Shown here: in pieces, positions 4,586 through 50,214 of the stretch
Layout: each line of letters opens with the position of its first letter
Numbering within the stretch: position 1 is the stretch's first letter
NCBI GenBank assembly: GCA_001938485.1
Contig: MQRK01236650.1
Coordinates: forward strand, 1-50,214
Direction: 5' to 3'
From: Girardia tigrina
Taxonomy: Eukaryota
Length of the DNA stretch: 50,214 bases
Translations under genes and position numbers: made by a program
The notes under the pieces: model-generated
The model's database searches: none
The model's input: the letters and a program-made list of their open reading frames with translations, nothing else
What the model was told of the DNA's origin: nothing

Positions 4586-4776
4586 GTAGAGTGCATTCAA
4601 ATCCCTTAAATATGTAAGAATTGTTCATTTCAGTTCATGGTTTTCTTTCTATCATGTTATTTATGATTATAATTGTGTACATTATCAATGTAAAAAACAT
4701 CTCTGAGGGGCCTCAGCTTTATAGTCACCCTGATGGTAAGTACTAATACTCATGATTGTACCAAAATCTTAAACAA

Positions 4777-5014
4777 TCTTTTTCCCAAAAACCGTAATAT
4801 TATGGTTAGCATGATATGTTTGTTTATATTATCAGTTGGGCTATTGACTTTTGATAGTTGGTAAAAATTTTGCGGAATGTTTTGAATTGTTTGTATCTTT
4901 TTCCCAAAAACCGTAATATTATGGTTAGCATGATATGTTTGTTTATATTATCAGTTGAGCTATTGACTTTTGATAGTTGGTAAAAATTGTGCGCAAGGTT
5001 CTGAATTGTTTGTT
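4777..5014. repeat. Tandem duplication, 2 x ~119 bp
   Basis: TCTTTTTCCCAAAAACCGTAATATTATGG... occurs twice head to tail. The second copy runs into the LTR-like sequence at 4988. Confidence 0.9.
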
Positions 5015-15054: not shown

Positions 15055-16340
15055 ATATTGTGTTTTTTGAATATTTTTGTATAAACATTTTAATAAACTT
15101 CGTAAGAATTTAATATTTATTATTAAATTTACATTTTTTCATATTTTATCTACTTTTAAAGTTTATATAATTCTGTTGAACTATTTTTAAGACATTATAT
15201 TTAATTTTTTTAAATCAATTTGATTACAAGTTCGCTTACTTTAAATTTTATCCAGAACATTTATTTTAAAAAATTATTAATATTGTAATTTTATACCACA
15301 TTTTATCGTCTTCGCGTTTTTTACAATAAATTTCTATTTTTTACTTTTATAATGTGATATTATTTTAAATGTATTTTTAGTCTTTAATTCAAAAAATTAA
15401 GTCTCCAAAAGCCTTACAAAATGATTCATTATCCACAAAAGAAAATAATGTATACGATTTGAAACTTTGAGGTGAACTCTAAAAATATAGAAAAGACAAT
15501 ATCGCCCCCCTATACATACACAACATACCTATGTACAACAAACCTTCATTTTATTTCATTTAAAAAGAAAGCTTTTATAAATTAAAATGTTTTATTCCCA
15601 AGGAATATGTAAAATTTCAATATTTTTTAATAAGCTACCGAAATTTTAGATATAAAAACTTTTCAAATGTAATTTTGAAAATTCCGAATGAAAACGTAAA
15701 GATATCGTAACATTTTAAAACTTCAAATTTTAGAAGTAAATTATGTAAATGTATTTATATTTAATTTTATTTATATTATAATTATGTTGTGCGAAAGAAA
15801 AAATGTTCCTCGAAAATTTGTTTTAAAAAATTTTGTATTGAAATAAAATTGTAATATTATGATAATTCTCGGTTTGAATTCAAAATTGTGATATCGGTAG
15901 GAATGACCACAGCGAACCTAACATGGGTTTTAGTTAAATATTATGGCTTTCATAAATTATGTAATATGTAATTCATTTAATTCCAATTTAATCAATTATT
16001 ATCAGTACAGGTAAATCTTTACGAGACTCAGACATATTTATTATAACTATATATAACTGTCATCAAATCTATGTGTTTTGTTAGCACAATGGTTATAATA
16101 TTATCGTTTTTTGGTAAAAGTATTGTTTTGGCGAATGGTAGGTAAAAGCCCGAAGTTAATGTTATATTTTTTGCACAAAATTGTGGGTATACATAAATAA
16201 ACAGCAAATCCAACCTTTAACATCTTTTAAATTTTAAAATCAAATACGAGTCTTTCACCAAAACAATATTTTTCCCAAAAACCGTAGTAGGGGAAAAATG
16301 GGGATTCACCGGCACTACCCCCCCNGGGGGTGTGTAACTA

Positions 16341-16800
16341 GTTACCGCGCGGTTACCATAGCAATGGTCACAGTTACCATGGCAACGGTCGCCATCACCT
16401 TAGCAACGGTTGCGGTTACCATGGCAAAGGTCACGGTTACCATGGCAACGGTCGCGATCACCTTAGAAACGCTTCTGATTGGTTCCTGGTTCCCTAGCAA
16501 CGGTTCCAGGTCACTTGGAAACGCTTCTGATTGGCTCCTTGGTTCCCTAGCAACGGTCGCGATCACCTTAGAAAGGCTTCTGATTGGTCGGCGGTTCCCT
16601 AGCAACGGTCTCGGTTACCATAGCAACGGTAACCAAGGCACATTTTTCATAAGTAACGGATACAGTGATCCAAGATGGCTGTAACCATGGTAACGGCCCC
16701 CGTATCCATAGCAACCGTGACCCCGTAACTAGGGAGCGTAGAAAAAAGTGCTAATCGATCACTGCAGTGATCAAATGTGCAAATTGATATTTTGAAAGGC
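16341..16800 (+). repeat. GC-rich 21-bp-period array of RFX X-box-like palindromes with interspersed CTGATTGG boxes; probable subterminal region of a mobile element
   Basis: GTTACCATRGCAAC-type units start at 16352, 16373, 16394, 16415, 16436 and 16457. CTGATTGG at 16475, 16527 and 16580. Inverted copy at 38650-38814 and decayed copy at ~25715-25915. Confidence 0.85.
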
Positions 16801-16873
16801 TATAGTATCGATATGTAGTCCCCGGATCTTAAAGAAATGGAAACCTTATTTTACCGTCATAGTAGGGTGCGTT

Positions 16874-17505
16874 TAGGGCCGCCGCGTGGGTAAGAGGTGC
16901 CTTTGTGCCAGATTATTTTCAGCGCCCTTCCCCGAACTGAACCCCCATGTCAAAAACTATGACTTGTTATGAATTTAATCATCAGAATATTTCCAATGAA
17001 TTCTTTTATTTTATAAAATAATTACAGGTTATATAATACGATAATATACAGGCATGGGTTATATACATACAATATATAATACTAAATCTAAGTAATCAAT
17101 AAAATTTGCTTGTCTCAAACATATATTAAGAATTAGATTACTTTATAATTATTCATCACTCAAAAATCAAATTACTTTTTACATATTTACTCTTCTAGCT
17201 TTAGCAGCTACATGACGCCTTTATCGAACGAAGTTGAGCGATCTACACGATCGCATCGCACGAAGTGACGAGCGCGCTTTCATAGCGTGGTATAATAAGG
17301 TATACGTTGCGCCCGCGTTTCCAGTATCTCTCTAATAAATCCATATTTGTCACTTTTTCTTTTTTATCATTTAATTTTTTTATATTTAATTTTAATTTTT
17401 TTATTTAGTGAGGTGGCGCCGAGTGAAAGAGGCGCCTGCCGGTGCCTTTAACACTCGGTGCCCTTGTGTGGCGCACAATATGAACAATCGTACGCGGCGG
17501 CCCTG
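16874..17505 (-). mobile_element. Non-autonomous hAT DNA transposon, 632 bp
   Basis: TIRs TAGGGCCGCCGCGT / ACGCGGCGGCCCTG and perfect 8-bp TSD GGTGCGTT (16866-16873, 17506-17513). An internal minus-strand ...AAKARRVNM* resembles a hAT transposase C-terminus. Confidence 0.93.
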
Positions 17506-17513
17506 GGTGCGTT

Positions 17514-17760
17514 ATCAGAAGCTTCGGACGTTTTGAGCAATCTTTATCGAAAATGGTTTTGATTATGATTTAATATATAGAAAAGATGACGAACATGTAA
17601 GTACAGATGAATGACGACGTCTGTGAAAAATGTGAAACAAAAAACGAAGAACCAAAATCAACTAAAGAAAGGATGGAACACATCAATACAGTGGTGATTC
17701 AGTCTACAATTCAATGGATAACAGAAAAACAAGGAAAGTGTTTAGGAATCAAGATTTTGG
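17514..17760 (+). pseudogene. Ty3/gypsy RNase H C-terminal remnant (target of the hAT insertion)
   Basis: GFDYDLIYRKDDEHVSTDE resembles FDFxIxYRxGxxHxNADxLSR, followed by a CxxC linker (CEKCETK). Confidence 0.55.
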
Positions 17761-17879
17761 ATTTCTCAGTTGTGTCCCTTGGTTGCATATTATTTTTATT
17801 TTTCGAATTTTTCGTATTTAATTCATTGTTTTATTTGTTTGCGTTTAGTTTTTTTATTCAGTTTTAATTTGAGAACTTC

Positions 17880-18042
17880 AAAAAACATTGAGAAAATTAA
17901 ACCTAAATATAAACATTAAATTTAAATTTAAACCCCATTAGTTTTATATAACAAGTATTAAAATATTAATCAGGCATATGGGCAGAGACAACCTCAAAGC
18001 AGCAGACAACATTCAAACATCAAACAACAAAAATTCTTCACA
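17880..18042 (-). mobile_element. Diverged LTR-like 5' end in reverse orientation
   Basis: Reverse complement reads TGTGAAGAATTTTTGTTG...TTGTCTCTGCCCATATG, similar to family A LTR starts. Confidence 0.45.
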
Positions 18043-18535
18043 ACAATAGCTGATAATAATAATTTGATTTTTTTGTCAAACTCTTCTGTTATAATAACAT
18101 ATTTGATAAAAGAAACAAAAGTTTATTTATAATTACTTAAAATTAATAAAAATAATAACTTACTGATTAATTTGAATCTGACTTCCACCATCATTAATAT
18201 TAAAATTAGAATCGCAATTACAATCGTGACGACTAAATATTTTAAAATCAAGTTAATTTTAAAAAAAATAAGTATTTGTTTTAAGAAAATCAATAAAAAT
18301 AAAGTTTTTTTATATAAAATTAATTATTTTAGTTTTTTTAATTTTCTAAATAATTTGATTTCTTAAGTTGTTGGCCGCTGCACAGTAGTTTCATTAATAA
18401 AAGTTACAAATAATCCTTCTTTAAAATAGAGATCATTTATTTAATCAATCCAAAAAAGATAATAAATTATATTAATTATAAAAATTATAATTACAAAAAC
18501 AACAAATAAACTTGAAAAAAGATGGCAATTTTTTA

Positions 18536-19558
18536 TTAAAAACAAATAAACGCCATTTAAAAATATATTTTAGGATAATATATTTCGACGGTTTAACCGT
18601 CATCATCAGATCACTGATTNNNNNNNNNNNNNNNNNNNNNNNNNNNNNNNNNNNNNNNNNNNNNNNNNNNNNNNNNNNNNNNNNNNNNNNNNNNNNNNNN
18701 NNNNNNNNNNNNNNNNNNNNNNNNNNNNNNNNNNNNNNNNNNNNNNNNNNNNNNNNNNNNNNNNNNNNNNNNNNNNNNNNNNNNNNNNNNNNNNNNNNNN
18801 NNNNNNNNNNNNNNNNNNNNNNNNNNNNNNNNNNNNNNNNNNNNNNNNNNNNNNNNNNNNNNNNNNNNNNNNNNNNNNNNNNNNNNNNNNNNNNNNNNNN
18901 NNNNNNNNNNNNNNNNNNNNNNNNNNNNNNNNNNNNNNNNNNNNNNNNNNNNNNNNNNNNNNNNNNNNNNNNNNNNNNNNNNNNNNNNNNNNNNNNNNNN
19001 NNNNNNNNNNNNNNNNNNNNNNNNNNNNNNNNNNNNNNNNNNNNNNNNNNNNNNNNNNNNNNNNNNNNNNNNNNNNNNNNNNNNNNNNNNNNNNNNNNNN
19101 NNNNNNNNNNNNNNNNNNNNNNNNNNNNNNNNNNNNNNNNNNNNNNNNNNNNNNNNNNNNNNNNNNNNNNNNNNNNNNNNNNNNNNNNNNNNNNNNNNNN
19201 NNNNNNNNNNNNNNNNNNNNNNNNNNNNNNNNNNNNNNNNNNNNNNNNNNNNNNNNNNNNNNNNNNNNNNNNNNNNNNNNNNNNNNNNNNNNNNNNNNNN
19301 NNNNNNNNNNNNNNNNNNNNNNNNNNNNNNNNNNNNNNNNNNNNNNNNNNNNNNNNNNNNNNNNNNNNNNNNNNNNNNNNNNNNNNNNNNNNNNNNNNNN
19401 NNNNNNNNNNNNNNNNNNNNNNNNNNNNNNNNNNNNNNNNNNATTTCTTATATAAAAGCAATAAAAAAGAACATAATCAGTGATCTGATGATGACGGTTA
19501 AACCGTCGAAATATATTATCCTAAAATATATTTTTAAATGGCGTTTATTTGTTTTTAA
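18536..19558. repeat. Perfect 84-bp inverted repeat (18536-18619 / 19475-19558) flanking an N-gap
   Basis: The arms are exact reverse complements. Either a foldback element or a scaffolding artefact. Confidence 0.85.
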
Positions 19559-23593: not shown

Positions 23594-25714
23594 AAATCCT
23601 GATTAACGTCTAAAAACTCAAATATAAATAATATTTGCTGTTAAACAAAACAAAAAATTTATTCTAAAAATAATATCCATGTTTTTACAAAACTTAAATG
23701 TGTTTAGATAAATCACTTTGTATATTTAAGCATGGTATTAATTACTTAATAAATAATGTTAATAAAGTGCAGATATGACGATGTGTTTCTCCAATATACA
23801 ATATATGCAATTTTTAAATGATAAGTTATTTCAATTATAATACGAAAATTTATTTTTGAATTTTATTTATAATCTTCTTATAAAAATTTATAATTTAAAA
23901 ATTATGTTATAAAATTTTAACTTTTTTGAAGTTTTTAAATTATTTAAAAAAACGAAGTAAAAAGAAGTAACTTCTCAAAGATACAATTGACCATGACTTA
24001 AATAAATTAATTTTATTTGATTTTATTCATGAAAATATTTTAAATTTTACTTATTTAAATATTTTCTATAATCAACTTCTAACACATATTTATTATTATT
24101 AAAATAAATTACCTCCAAACCAATTCAGCAAATATATCTTATCTAAATAGTAAATAGATATTAAATTAAACAAAATTGAAATACAATTAATTAAAAATTA
24201 ATTAGATTTTACTGAAATACTTTTATTTCTCAGATAATATCCTTTATGTGGCCCAAATTAGGGATCAGTTGTTGATTCGACACGGGGAGCGTATAAACAT
24301 ATTTATATACTAATCTTAGTGAGCTCTTATTTGATATTTTTCAAAAATAATTTTGTTAAAGCTTTTTTTGAGAAATTGATTATTATATATGTTAACTAAT
24401 ATGAAATTTTGTTAGTAAATATAATAATAATCCGGAATTTATTGTATATTAATGGTAATTTTTTATTTACTTTTATTGAAGATTTTAGGAATTTAGAGGG
24501 TAATTACTTTGCCAATTTTGAGAATTAATTATTGTGCTATTAAGTTTTATAAATAATAATTCCCAAAACTGTCTCTCATAATGTGAAAACAGAAAACTTT
24601 TTTCATTTGAAATAGAAGATGTTCTATTTATACAATATAACCAATGATCAAGAACGTAACTCGATGATGATTTGTCTCTCCAATACGATCCTCACGTCCT
24701 ATAAATGTAAATAGACTGTGGCTTTTTAGGAGGCCCGAGACGCATACGGATTCATAAAGCACTCCCTTCAACTGGGGATTGACATGCCTAAGCTCCGCCG
24801 GCGAACAGGTTTCGCACCACCACTATCCTAGAATCTTTGCCGTTGTAGAACGTGAAGAATTTGAACAGCATCCTATCGAAGGCGGCGGTAACTGATTTCC
24901 GGCACGGAATCTCAACAATTGTGGTGCATTGTCAATTATAATTCCAAACACCTATCTAATGACGGTATCAATATCGGTTTTAATGGGATGCAGAAAGGTA
25001 TCGCAATATGGTTACTTAGGGCATGCAATTCTCTCTTCTCGCCAACCATCCTTTCTTTCACAAAATCACTCGTTGTAACGACTCCCTGGTCTGTAACGGC
25101 CAATAAAAACGACTCAAACTGAAAGCTTAATGCGATAATCGAACCTAAATTATTATGTAATCGATGCTTTATCAAGATCAAGTATTAAAACGATCACGGA
25201 TTTCATTCCTAAAGCAAAAAAATGAGATTCGGTGCTCAAACAAACGGCAGTGAATTCGTATTTCGGATATGGAACATGTAAAACATATTATTTTTCTCGT
25301 AATTAATGAATTGCAGTTGTCTTACCTTCTTTAAGATGATTATTTCGTTCGTATAAGAGCTTGGTTGAAGTAAATGAAATACAGTGAACATTCCTTTTCG
25401 AAATTCGAATTCCCTGAACATTTCAGTCGTTACTATGTGTTAGAAAATCAATTGATTATCAAAATTAACCCTGCACAAATATCCCTCATTTTTAGTCGAC
25501 CATAAAACTTGCCAATTTTTGCGCCCTCAAATTGATGTCGAGACACATTATGTTTTTGTCGGAGATAAAAGTAAATCACCGTTTTTCAGCAGTAAATAAT
25601 CAATTTTTTATGTCCAGTTATCCTTTAAATATTTTTTTCCATTCGATCACTTGTCCAAATTCATGCTAAATCCCATAATTTGTAACATAGAAGTAGGTAG
25701 GAAATGAACTTCCT

Positions 25715-25915
25715 TATGGTTTCCATGACAACATTGCCAATTACCTTAACAAAGGTTCCAGTTACCATAACAACGTATCCGATTGCCTTAGAAACGGTTT
25801 GTAAATGTATCATGGCGACGGGCCACGTCACTTTATAGTACGTCACTTAGTAGTACCTTAGCAACCGTCACAATTACATTATCAACCATCAAAATTACCT
25901 TGATAACGATAACCA
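25715..25915 (+). repeat. Decayed copy of the 21-bp X-box array
   Basis: GTTTCCATGACAAC, ATTACCTTAACAAA, GTTACCATAACAAC and ATTGCCTTAGAAAC at 21-bp spacing. Confidence 0.7.
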
Positions 25916-38039: not shown

Positions 38040-38545
38040 CACGTTTCCAGCATCTGAAAGTTTTTCTTTGGAAACATATAAACATTTATAATTCGTAGTG
38101 TAAATCATTTTTCCACAAAACTTCTGTTTATCTTTCCTAATAAATCTCATTCCATCGGATGTAAGCGAGGACATTAAAACAGTTGCTAATTTATTTTAAA
38201 TTATTGGATATGCCTTCTAGTTTGGTACTTTTTTGGCTTTAAAATATCCGGTCTTTCTCTAATTTGCATTCCCTGACCTTCGATAAAGTCTGCTGATTTC
38301 AAAAATGTTAAATTGCACTCTTTGTAATTAACATTATATAATAAAACTGACTCTCCAGTCTGACAACTTGATTCTCTAAAGTTGCAAAATGGATGTGATT
38401 GTAATTTTCCAGTTGCATCATCAAATATTCCATCAAATGTTCTTAATTCTGTTTGATACTCTATCGAAATCATAATTTTTTGTATAATTTTTTTTCCTCC
38501 CAATTTTACAGGTTCACCTTCACAATCACCATTTACTTCAATCAA
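38040..38545 (-). pseudogene. Fragment of a class III viral fusion glycoprotein (chuvirus G / herpesvirus gB-like), frameshifted
   Basis: NGDCEG...CNFRESSCQTGESVLLY...C then, after a frameshift, MRFIRKDKQKFCGKMIYTTNYKCLYVS. The cysteine pattern and CGxxIxxTxxxxLxV motif recall chuvirus-type glycoproteins; recognised by eye only. Confidence 0.6.
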
Positions 38546-38549
38546 AAAA

Positions 38550-38814
38550 AATAGCACGGTGAAAAAGCACTGTGCTAGCACATTATAAATGTGCGGTAAA
38601 ATGTGCAATATCAATTAGCACTTTAAAAATATCGATTAGCACATCTAGGCACTGTGTAGTGATCGATTAGCACTTTTTTCTACGGTCCTTAGTGATATGG
38701 TCACGGTTGCTATGGATACGGTAAGCGTTACCATGGTTACAACTGCCTTGAACCACTGTATCCGTTGCTAATGAAAAACGTCCCTTGGTTACCGTTGCTA
38801 TGGTAACTGAGACC
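38550..38814 (-). repeat. Inverted copy of the X-box repeat family
   Basis: 38650-38814 is the reverse complement of 16607-16770 at roughly 85% identity by eye. It continues into TAGCAC/GTGCTA repeats down to ~38550. Confidence 0.9.
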
Positions 38815-47037: not shown

Positions 47038-47082
47038 AGTAGTAATAAATTAGCACGGATACCTCCCAACCCTGAAATATTA

Positions 47083-48324
47083 ATATTCAAAAAATCGAAT
47101 ATTTTATCGATAAAACGCATAAAATATTCAAAAAATCGAATATTTTATCGATAAAACGCATATAATATTCAAAAAATCAAATATTTTTTCGATAAAACAC
47201 TATTATTATTCAAAATCGAATATTTTATTATTAAAACGTATATAATATTTTAAAAATGTTATATTATTTATTTCAAAAAGTGGATACCAAAAAGCCATAC
47301 CGTAGTATGGCTTGTTTGATATAAAAAATGTTATATTATTTATAACAAAAATGAGTAATCGGATATTTTATCGATAAACACTATAAAAATTCAGAAAAAT
47401 CGATTTTTTTTGATTTTTCTTTTTTTGTTTTTTTTGTTTTTTTGTTTTTTTTCTTTTTGCATTTGATTTGATTTGATTTGATTTGATTTTGAGATCTCGG
47501 CCGTCTTTAGGAACCGGTTCCAAGAGCAACTGACTGTCGATTTTTCTAATATTCTGAGATTATCTAGAATCTCCCAGAATATTATATTATCAACGCGCAG
47601 CAATAGCATTAAGATAACAGGTCTNNNNNNNNNNNNNNNNNNNNNNNNNNNNNNNNNNNNNNNNNNNNNNNNNNATAAAATATTCAAAAAATCGAATATT
47701 TTATCGATAAAACGCATAAAATATTCAAAAAATCAAATATTTTATCGATAAAATACTATTAATATTCAAAAAATCGAATATTTTATCGATAAATCGCATA
47801 AAATATTCAAAAAATCGAATATTTTATCGATAAAACGCATATAATATTCAAAAAATCGAATATTTTTTCGATAAAACACTATTATTATTCAAAATCGAAT
47901 ATTTTATTATTAAAACGTATATAATATTTTAAAAATGTTATATTATTTATTTCAAAAAGTGGATACCAAAAAGCCATACCGTAGTATGGCTTGTTTGATA
48001 TAAAAAATGTTATATTATTTATAACAAAAATGAGTAATCGGATATTTTATCGATAAACACTATAAAAATNNNNNNNNNNNNNNNNNNNNNNNNNNNNNNN
48101 NNNNNNNNNNNNNNNNNNNNNNNNNNNNNNNNNNNNNNNNNNNNNNNNNNNNNNNNNNNNNNNNNNNNNNNNNNNNNNNNNNNNNNNNNNNNNNNNNNNN
48201 NNNNNTTTAGGAACCGGTTCCAAGAGCAACTGACTGTCGATTTTTCTTATATTCTGAGATTATCTAGAATCTCCCAGAATATTATATTATCAACGCGCAG
48301 CAATAGCATTAAGATAACAGGTCT
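47083..48324. repeat. ~41-bp tandem repeats in the Polinton terminal region, inside a block present twice (47083-47624 and ~47675-48324)
   Basis: Unit AATATTCAAAAAATCGAATATTTTATCGATAAAACGCATAA. The larger block duplication spans N-gaps. Confidence 0.85.
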
Positions 48325-48997
48325 GCAGCCCCATTAAATAATGTATTGAACTACTGGAGAGTTGCTCTCATTAATACCTTAGGTGCATGATATTATGTTA
48401 TAAGTTTTAATGTATCTATTTACATACCGTTTTTTATTAATTATTAAAAATAAAATTGATTGATAAAATACGAATTAATAATAAATAAAATTCACAAAAA
48501 TGTATAAAAAATAAAGTTTGAATTGAAATATAATCATATAAATTGAAATATCTAAAAAAATCAACATTAATTACTGATAAAATTAATAAGTAATATATTT
48601 TAAAAATGTATATATTTTAATTTTTTAGTGGTAATATGAATATTTTTTTTACCTTTTTGTTTGTAAATTTAATTAAATAATGTTTATGAACATTTTGTAT
48701 AAAAAACTACATAAAATATTCTTAAAATTGAAAAATTCATCGATTTTACCTATTTTGCAAAATTTTCAAGTTTTTTCTAAATTTAGAATATTTTAAATGA
48801 TTCTTATGAAGAAAAATAGAATCTATGTATATTTCTAACAAATCTTCTCCACTTTTATAAAAAATTTTTACAGACCATTTTATTTTAAAGAAAAATGGGT
48901 TTTTGTAAGTTAATCAGGGTTAATCTGTTAAATCAAATAATTTTTTAGAGGAAATTTGCGAAAAATTTTTAAAAAATGTTATAATGTTCTAATAAAA

Positions 48998-49453
48998 ATG
49001 GAAGCAAGTAAAATCGGTGAGGAAATTCGCATGGAGAAAAGAATATTTCGTGAAAATATTTTGAGAAGATATATTCATGAATTTAAGATTAATCCGCAAT
49101 TGAAGCATAAGGATTTATGTAATAAAGTTGGTGTATCAATTCATGTTTTTCGTCGAATTCGTCAAGATTTCGGTATGATGGAAAGTATGAAATCATATGA
49201 ACGAAAGTTACCAAGTATTTCAAAACGAAAACGAAAACCAGCGGAGAAAATATCTGAAAAACAAAAAATAGATGTAAATTCTCAAATGAATAATTTAACA
49301 ATTAATCAACAAAAACGCGAAAAAAGAAAAAAAGAAGTTGTTATTGGATCTGGAAAAACAATAATACAAGATAATGTTTCCGCTGTTCCATCTGATAATG
49401 AGGATGATCATAACATTGATGAAAGTAGTGCGGATGAAGAGAAAAAATTATAA
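48998..49453 (+). CDS. Polinton ORF, putative helix-turn-helix DNA-binding protein with basic NLS-like stretches and acidic tail (151 aa)
   Basis: NPQLKHKDLCNKVGVSIHVFRRIRQDFGM is HTH-like; KRKRK; AAAATG start context. Confidence 0.7.
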   Translation: MEASKIGEEIRMEKRIFRENILRRYIHEFKINPQLKHKDLCNKVGVSIHVFRRIRQDFGMMESMKSYERKLPSISKRKRKPAEKISEKQKIDVNSQMNNLTINQQKREKRKKEVVIGSGKTIIQDNVSAVPSDNEDDHNIDESSADEEKKL

Positions 49454-49466
49454 TATAATAATAAAA

Positions 49467-49964
49467 ATGGAACAAATAAATAAAAATTCATCTTTGGAAT
49501 ACGCGAAGAAAGATAGACGTGTAAAAGAGATTGCTCGTAAAAAAGAAAGTAAATTTATGGAGTTATCACTCATAGATCAAAGTGCTGTTGCTCGTAAAAA
49601 TATTTATGAGATGGAAGTTCTCAGTATGGCAATGGAATATATTTCCAACACAGCAATGGGATTGGTTGATGAATTGGAAGAAAAAGATATTGAATTGGAA
49701 TCTTCAAAGAAAAAATTGATTAAAGCGGAAAATATATTAGGTAGTACTGAAAATAAAAAAGCACAAAATGATTATTTTAATTTTTCTAAAGAAGTAGATA
49801 AGGAAAAAACTAAATCTCTTTTGGAAAATAAAAAATGGACTCCTCAAAAACAAGAAAGCTTCAAGCAAGCTTATTTGAAATATAATCTGGATGTAATGAA
49901 TAAATTTTTATCGGGAGGAAATAATTACCAGGAAGATTCAATGGATAACCATGGAAAAATATGA
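49467..49964 (+). CDS. Polinton ORF, uncharacterised coiled-coil-rich protein (165 aa)
   Basis: Intact E/K-rich ORF tightly packed between the HTH ORF and the ATPase; AAAATG start context. Confidence 0.7.
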   Translation: MEQINKNSSLEYAKKDRRVKEIARKKESKFMELSLIDQSAVARKNIYEMEVLSMAMEYISNTAMGLVDELEEKDIELESSKKKLIKAENILGSTENKKAQNDYFNFSKEVDKEKTKSLLENKKWTPQKQESFKQAYLKYNLDVMNKFLSGGNNYQEDSMDNHGKI

Positions 49965-50048
49965 AAAACTTAAGAAAACTTTACTTTTTAATAAAATATA
50001 GTGTAAAATACCCGAAAATGCGGTATTTTTCTAATAAAAAATAAAAAA

Positions 50049-50214
50049 ATGACGAATGAAAAACTAAATATTTTAACAATGTACGAGTCGAAATTCAATA
50101 ACAAATTATTCCCTAAAAATTTTCGAATTTTAATAGTTGGTGAATCGGGATGTGGTAAAAATGTTTTACTAGCGAAAATGTTATTGGAGGATAATTTTTT
50201 AGATTTCAATAATT
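50049..50214 (+). CDS. Polinton A32/FtsK-like genome-packaging ATPase, 5' partial
   Basis: MTNEKLNILTMYESKFNNKLFPKNFRILIVGESGCGKNVLLAKMLLEDNFLDFNN: Walker A GxxGxGK in a typical Polinton ATPase context. Confidence 0.85.
   Translation, partial: MTNEKLNILTMYESKFNNKLFPKNFRILIVGESGCGKNVLLAKMLLEDNFLDFNN

Follow-up and report, generated by a model that had tools for sequence, protein, structure and literature searches.

The window, by which we mean the whole 50,214-nucleotide stretch of Girardia tigrina DNA analysed here, contains copies of a very high-copy modular repeat family with an array of X-box-like palindromes and CCAAT boxes in its interior. The reading that we favour, with a probability of roughly 0.45, is that the repeat is a mobile element that is non-autonomous and has a variable central array, which would bind the host factors RFX, a regulator of cilia genes, and NF-Y. 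This reading is supported by the abundance of the family, its modular joints, the conservation of the boxes between copies A and B, the consensus-restoring C at positions 16428 and 16575, the occurrence of both 13- and 14-bp forms of the box, the MHC-II-like way in which the Y boxes are oriented and spaced, and the HINE-like end of copy B. It is weakened by the presence of invariant blocks that are not X boxes, by a helical phase kept in only 3 of 6 spacing origins, by an X unit in the place of a CRE, and by the lack of a terminal hairpin in copy A. The sequence-only reading of this DNA had proposed a mobile enhancer cassette; a dispersed repeat with consensus boxes is indeed what we find, whereas its use of host RFX and NF-Y as an enhancer is something we infer.

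Copy A lies on the forward strand at 16326..16815. Its right edge is approximate (16802-16815) and its true 5' end is missing at an assembly N at position 16325. In two DNA runs the depth falls about 450-fold past copy A position 16781. The array is where it had originally been placed, but the repeat is larger than had been thought, as it extends from the N at 16325 to about 16815, and a further array in the window (copy C, described below) had been missed. A perfect 12-bp palindrome is seen in the sequence immediately 5' of the array (16334..16345, no strand assigned). It is followed on the forward strand by six 14-bp X-box-like units with an exact 21-bp period (16352..16470), which make up a 63-bp higher-order unit present twice, and by three 52/53-bp modules (16475..16627), each of which contains one inverted CCAAT (Y) box and two X units. 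Tandem duplication with periods of 21, 63 and 52 bp accounts for all of 16349-16628. Next come a non-tandem segment that is common to copy B (16629..16715) and carries the X units at 16629 (weak), 16681 and 16702, and a constant 3' block (16737..16815), which contains 27 bp that A and B share without a change as well as degenerate ATCGAT-type repeats. A 16-bp palindrome inside this block (16757-16772) is present in copy A only. The C-run and the G-run that flank the single N (window positions 16310-16334) could form a GC hairpin, in which case few bases may be missing and the element may start further left.

A coding role for the array was rejected, as the open frames over it have no Pfam match and the 52/53-bp modules shift the frame. 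A hammerhead reading of the CTGA and GAAAC motifs was likewise rejected, since the core does not match the hammerhead consensus. No Rfam families or tRNAs were found in the window, in which the 5' end of the array element is missing, a circumstance that bears on the search for a SINE head of tRNA, 5S or 7SL origin.

In total, 15 X-box-like units are found within 16352-16715, in agreement with the earlier claim of more than a dozen palindromes, although in three of them (16394, 16457 and 16562) the left half is asymmetric, which makes them poor palindromes. The first six start at 16352, 16373, 16394, 16415, 16436 and 16457, exactly 21 bp apart as had been described, and the remaining nine at 16489, 16510, 16542, 16562, 16594, 16614, 16629, 16681 and 16702. 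The dyad-to-dyad steps of copy A are 21 (five times), 31.5, 21, 32, 20.5, 31.5, 20.5, 14.5, 52.5 and 21. A relaxed X-box pattern, supplemented by a 13-bp variant of our own, gives 12 exact matches in 16341-16770 compared to a mean of 0.075 (maximum 2) in 200 dinucleotide shuffles. As the units are tandem duplicates, this count is not independent evidence. The RFX consensus has been published in a strict form, GTNRCC N0-3 RGYAAC, and a loose form, RYYNYY N1-3 RRNRAC, and published work also indicates that control by RFX cannot be predicted from a loose match by itself. Ten of the 15 units of copy A fit the loose pattern and four the strict one, so that the proposed agreement with the RFX consensus holds. 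The rest of the window contains 70 loose matches (1.46 per kb) and one strict match (0.02 per kb); copy B has two strict matches and one loose, and copy C has five loose matches and no strict ones. Boxes of 13 and 14 bp are both present, and the variable spacer of the RFX consensus (N0-3) permits both.

A comparison of the units with each other is less clear-cut. By hand count, 8 of the 12 variant alleles among 12 units respect the RFX degeneracy, compared to 22 of the 42 possible changes, and in the 12 aligned units minority letters are found in 29 of the 168 cells that belong to boxes and in 31 of the 84 that belong to spacers. The helical phasing stressed in the sequence-only reading stands as far as the 21-bp steps are concerned, but only three of the six independent spacing origins (21, 31.5, 52.5 and 14.5 in copy A; 24.5 and 46 in copy C) are multiples of 10.5. 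The phasing is mostly the result of tandem duplication and is weaker evidence than it appears.

The three CTGATTGG boxes start at 16475, 16527 and 16580, that is, 52 and 53 bp apart, just as had been reported. On the opposite strand all three read RRCCAATCAG, which is the expected fit to the NF-Y consensus; the CTGATTGG 8-mer occurs three more times in the window on either strand. In all three modules the Y box starts 25 nt past one X unit and 4 nt past the next, on the same strand. In the mouse H2-E promoter the same two motifs are 24 nt apart (a hand count from published primers), and the orientation and distance of the boxes matter in MHC promoters. The gap between X and Y in copy A is filled by a second X unit and not by a CRE, as X2 would be; CRE-like half sites are present in copy C only (25825 and 25840). 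The X-Y geometry appears to be nearer to that of MHC II than expected, but it represents one origin event that was noticed post hoc, and its chance probability is about 5%, as 2 of 21 registers and one orientation out of two would have qualified.

The dispersed nature of the repeat, which had also been claimed, is borne out by two additional copies in the window and by its high abundance in public runs. Copy B (38552..38814, reverse strand) is truncated on its 5' side at the equivalent of 16607, has a longer 3' module than copy A, and is 83.9% identical to 16607-16802 over 199 bp. Copy C (25719..25907, forward strand) is a diverged relative (about 75% identity over 59 bp), in which the 21-bp period of the X units is kept; neither an exact CTGATTGG nor the 3' block was detected within 25719-25907. 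A decayed fragment of a WDR36/UTP21 pseudogene (about 24600-25700, reverse strand) stops right at copy C, and the AGTAGG flank of copy C sits at the edge of the pseudogene (the last stretch was read by eye).

Copies A and B can be compared over 16607-16770, where 1 of the 55 positions inside boxes and 22 of the 109 outside them are different (Fisher P 5e-4). Leaving out the weak box at 16629 changes these counts to 0 of 42 and 23 of 122, and when the boxes are shifted circularly, no more than 0 and 1 of 163 shifts give an equally good result. The motifs are therefore more conserved than the spacers, as the sequence-only reading had it, in this single close pair of copies. Blocks that are not X boxes are invariant between A and B as well, namely the 27 bp at 16737-16763 and 13 bp at 16655-16667.

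The size of the family was estimated from four of 24 public runs with the repeat, which were picked for containing it and mapped as contigs on 16326-18600. In run X1, 281,409 of 13,058,167 contigs mapped to this region, and in run X2, 150,440 of 15,685,190 (1-2% of all contigs), with nearly all of the depth falling on the element. The summed depth in X1 is 0.8-9e7 over 16326-16781 versus 29.4 for the contig over 17893-18506; this quantity is inflated by short overlapping contigs and is not a copy number. Our estimate is that the family has 1e4-1e5 copies, which agrees with the presence of two close copies in 49 kb. The mapped contigs are mostly 90-99% alike, and the family is therefore a diverged one. 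Among the 40 of 109 variants listed, a C that restores the consensus is found at 16428 and 16575 in 87% and 75% of the X1 depth, respectively. As most copies keep this base and copy A has lost it at both positions, copy A appears to be a decaying copy. Among the 15 of 480 joints listed, some lead from 16483, 16533, 16607 and 16610 to 16738-16746, which shows that members differ in the content of the array but keep the 3' block. Loose contig ends at 16334 and 16414 point to further X units 5' of the N in other copies. One RNA run (X5) has a relatively greater depth on the element than the DNA runs have, but we give this no weight, since the runs were picked for containing the repeat and contigs cannot show expression. 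It is possible that repeat catalogues already list the family without a class.

The same data have to be weighed against a neutral origin, in which a founder palindrome that resembled an X-box by chance was amplified by slippage into a minisatellite within, or derived from, a repeat. The periods of 21, 52 and 63 bp would then be merely unit lengths, and the boxes would be conserved through conversion between nearly identical units or through a role in a hairpin. Such an origin would fit the tandem duplication of the whole of 16349-16628, the out-of-phase spacings of 14.5 in copy A and 24.5 and 46 in copy C, and the less than clear-cut agreement with the RFX degeneracy (8 of 12 alleles, where chance would give about half). 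The 21-bp part is about ten times as deep as the 3' part, which implies that longer arrays or satellites exist and is also in line with a minisatellite. A neutral origin does not account as readily for the boxes at 16681 and 16702, which lie outside the tandem array and yet are invariant between A and B while the spacers change, or for the co-occurrence of two different host motifs, and the RNA fold of the array is only marginally better than that of shuffles (z -1.87, 4 of 100). On balance, we consider a neutral origin doubtful.

Only slightly less plausible, though in our view still unlikely, is that the units are iterons, that is, subterminal sites for a protein of an autonomous parent, for instance a transposase or a winged-helix initiator, which resemble X-boxes by convergence or by common ancestry of the domain. 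Transposon ends typically have phased arrays next to a terminal block that is constant. In addition, the 3' block, which is free of X boxes, is conserved as much as the boxes are, and the window contains a Polinton-like element that likewise carries a terminal palindrome array, with a 41-bp period. However, neither a parent nor an RFX-like ORF is present in the window, and the element-encoded winged-helix protein suggested in the sequence-only reading found no counterpart among the window ORFs scanned. The plasmid and phage records searched contained no similar DNA, and the viral, metagenome and genome collections gave chance hits only. Iterons would also leave the three canonical CCAAT boxes unexplained. 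The loci recovered from these collections by pattern scans (0 and 9 in viral contigs, 1 in metagenome contigs and 1 in prokaryote genomes) were rejected as chance matches, as their similarity barely extended beyond the pattern itself. Separately, an AT-rich contig of the viral collection (L010, 2986-3025) has three tandem 15-bp units with X-box-like palindromes; it shows no wider similarity and is probably unrelated.

The ends of the copies bear on the class of the element. The 3' module of copy B (38544..38690, reverse strand) consists of successive hairpins, the last of which (38577-38552) is followed by a run of eight T (T8, 38551-38544). Its folding has a z of -3.03 and none of 200 shuffles was as good. 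The 3' side of copy B extends about 130 bp past the array, and an env-like fragment begins at 38542, directly after the T8. The hairpins and the T8 are a candidate for the true end of the element. The T-rich boundary is seen on the 3' side of copy B, whose 5' side is truncated. In copy B, a 12-bp palindrome lies 20-31 nt from the T-run with a hairpin at the end, and there is no such hairpin at the visible end of copy A. Variable-length central tandem repeats lie beside a constant 3' module, which is the layout of Helentrons. On account of the hairpins and the T8 of copy B, our leading guess, which we put forward tentatively, is that the element is Helentron-associated, i.e. a HINE-like rolling-circle element moved by an unseen autonomous partner. 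No Rep/Helicase partner was found among the window ORFs scanned. A canonical Helitron has a 3' CTRR end and is inserted between A and T, whereas the putative end of copy B is GCTA followed by the T8. We refrain from filing the element as a HINE member because copy A lacks the end of copy B and no subTIR pair, empty site or partner was seen. The subTIRs of a HINE are paired and 11-15 bp long, and the 5' end that would carry one of them is lost at the N in copy A and by truncation in copy B. A check of the copy A flanks for terminal inverted repeats gave a best match of 12 of 16 bases, equalled by 121 of 2000 shuffles, with the caveat that the N may hide the true end. In the seven end-to-end comparisons (TIR or Polinton-like ends), 92 to 1413 of 2000 shuffles were as good. 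The ends do not follow the LTR rules of TG...CA termini and a neighbouring primer-binding site or polypurine tract, as the hairpin and T8 of copy B lead into the middle of env and the flank of copy A into the middle of pol (judged by eye, with the ends incompletely defined).

The weakest alternative is a terminal repeat of a larger coding element (an LTR U3 enhancer left as solo LTRs, or a Polinton-type repeat) with host RFX and NF-Y serving its promoter. It would fit the Gypsy pol fragment after copy A and the env-like fragment after copy B, both in the orientation of the array, the NF-Y enhancer complex assembled by the ERV-9 LTR, and a match of 13 of 15 bases between the end of copy B and the beginning of the Polinton-like element, which 92 of 2000 shuffles equalled. 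It is nevertheless quite unlikely, as the flanks lead into mid-pol and mid-env rather than to gag or a primer-binding site and are not the same in the two copies, the depth of the element is about 50-560 times that of the pol fragment, copy B ends in a hairpin and T8 and not in CA, and the Polinton match, being one of seven end comparisons, is not significant after that count.

The surroundings of the copies are rich in other mobile DNA. The GC content of the window is mostly 20-31% per kb, which is that of AT-rich animal DNA, and remnants of mariner, Gypsy, non-LTR and Polinton-like elements fill it. To the right of copy A, a stretch of about 60 bases without assignment is followed by an insertion (16874-17505) and then by a broken Gypsy pol fragment (17558-17741). 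The insertion is hAT-like and non-autonomous. Its inverted ends are 14 bp long and agree at 13 of 14 positions, 8 bp of the target are duplicated on its two sides (16866-16873 and 17506-17513), and its ends have a high depth in the runs. A short ORF at 17601-17867 was considered as a cargo gene and rejected, as it is a Gypsy pol fragment; a HMMER library search with this ORF gave one weak unrelated hit. A small MITE-like element with 31-bp inverted ends occupies 16105-16284, and related ends are found in a 119-bp tandem at 4776-5013. At 38040-38542, on the reverse strand, lies a broken gene for a Monjiviricetes/chuvirus-type fusion glycoprotein, with PF24664 in its relatives, which is probably the env of an LTR retroelement. 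No relatives of the Gypsy and env fragments were found in the viral contigs searched. The first part of the Polinton/Maverick-like element occupies 47038-50214, up to the end of the window, and its terminal 41-bp tandem arrays are rich in TATCGATA-type palindromes. It contains two ORFs without assignment (48941-49964) and, at 50040, the start of a Pox_A32-like ATPase (E 9e-4, below the Pfam cut-off). Its array is the second palindrome array near an element end, and assembly gaps may have duplicated it. An intact-looking 497-codon frame for a membrane protein (35021-36514, forward strand) has weak Otopetrin leads in Atlas, spread over three phyla; it has no Pfam match and no sequence homologs were found.

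If the repeat is a mobile element with host-factor sites, its history could have been as follows. A 21-bp unit with an RFX-type X-box would have been amplified in tandem into a central array of variable length, and one derived unit would have gained a CCAAT box. Host RFX dimers would bind the boxes on one face of the helix and NF-Y would bind the Y boxes, and the two factors together would keep the element transcribed or in open chromatin in the cells through which the genome is inherited. This would favour those source copies whose boxes are intact, while inserted copies such as copy A would decay. By analogy, the likeliest beneficiary would be the element itself, through access or expression in those cells. 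In a planarian, NF-YB maintains spermatogonial stem cells (PMC4909293), and RFX has been linked to cilia gene modules there.

A stronger version of this reading is a long shot: the arrays would constitute a selected cooperative RFX-NF-Y module with vertebrate MHC geometry, which in tens of thousands of copies would contain most of the RFX sites of the genome and would act as a sink for, or rewire, a regulator of cilia and the germline. Were it true, the X-Y enhanceosome geometry would be far older than the MHC and would have been exploited by mobile DNA. Binding of RFX would in itself have consequences. At about 10-15 boxes per copy and an estimated 1e4-1e5 copies, the family would contain orders of magnitude more X-boxes than the ciliary promoters do. 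The host would have to silence, tolerate or co-opt the arrays, and the repeat would dominate motif-enrichment studies in this lineage. The arrays would be a natural library in which to test RFX spacing rules and RFX/NF-Y cooperation outside vertebrates. If RFX does not bind, the repeat is abundant but ordinary and has a minisatellite inside it.

No account of an element with RFX or X-box arrays was found in the literature searched. The S box and the recruitment of CIITA/NLRC5 are vertebrate-specific. The MHC class II SXY module (PMC7866136, PMC7753138, PMC4374748) is similar in that an X-type site is followed by CTGATTGG on the same strand, 25 nt away here and 24 nt away in H2-E; however, it is a single-copy vertebrate promoter that needs S, X2/CREB and CIITA, whereas the module described here is tandem and lies within a mobile repeat, in a genome that is invertebrate-like. 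HINE/DINE-1 non-autonomous Helentrons (PMC4067079, PMC7492417) are alike in their very high copy number, the lack of coding capacity, the variable central tandem array with a constant 3' module, and a 3' stem-loop with a T-run, as in copy B. They differ in that no subTIR pair, 5' module, empty site or autonomous partner was seen for the present repeat, and in that the terminal hairpin abuts the T-run in copy B and is absent from copy A, and their central repeats are not described as transcription-factor sites in the available portions of those two papers. Helitrons of C. elegans hold 61% of the heat-shock elements and bind HSF-1 (PMC6927752), and thus provide a likeness of a mobile element with dense sites for one host factor, possibly most of those in the genome. 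HSF-1 binding and gene activation were measured in that system (PMC6927752), whereas here RFX and NF-Y sites with a two-turn period are read from the DNA alone. The ERV-9/LTR12 enhancer (PMC10968565) likewise has CCAAT boxes in a dispersed repeat and NF-Y partnering with other factors, but it is an LTR with GATA-2 and MZF1 as partners and, in the part of the review consulted, without an X-box array, whereas the repeat described here has no LTR ends. The CERP2/CELE2 MITEs of Caenorhabditis (PMC9757741) also are non-autonomous repeats that seed binding sites genome-wide; they are bound by the transposase-related HIM-17, and promoter co-option is proven there. Mobile elements with arrays of host-factor sites are therefore known, and the RFX case is new as far as the literature searched shows. 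In its function, the element would be most like the HSE Helitrons, the ERV-9 LTR and the CERP2/CELE2 MITEs, and in its build it would be most like the HINEs.
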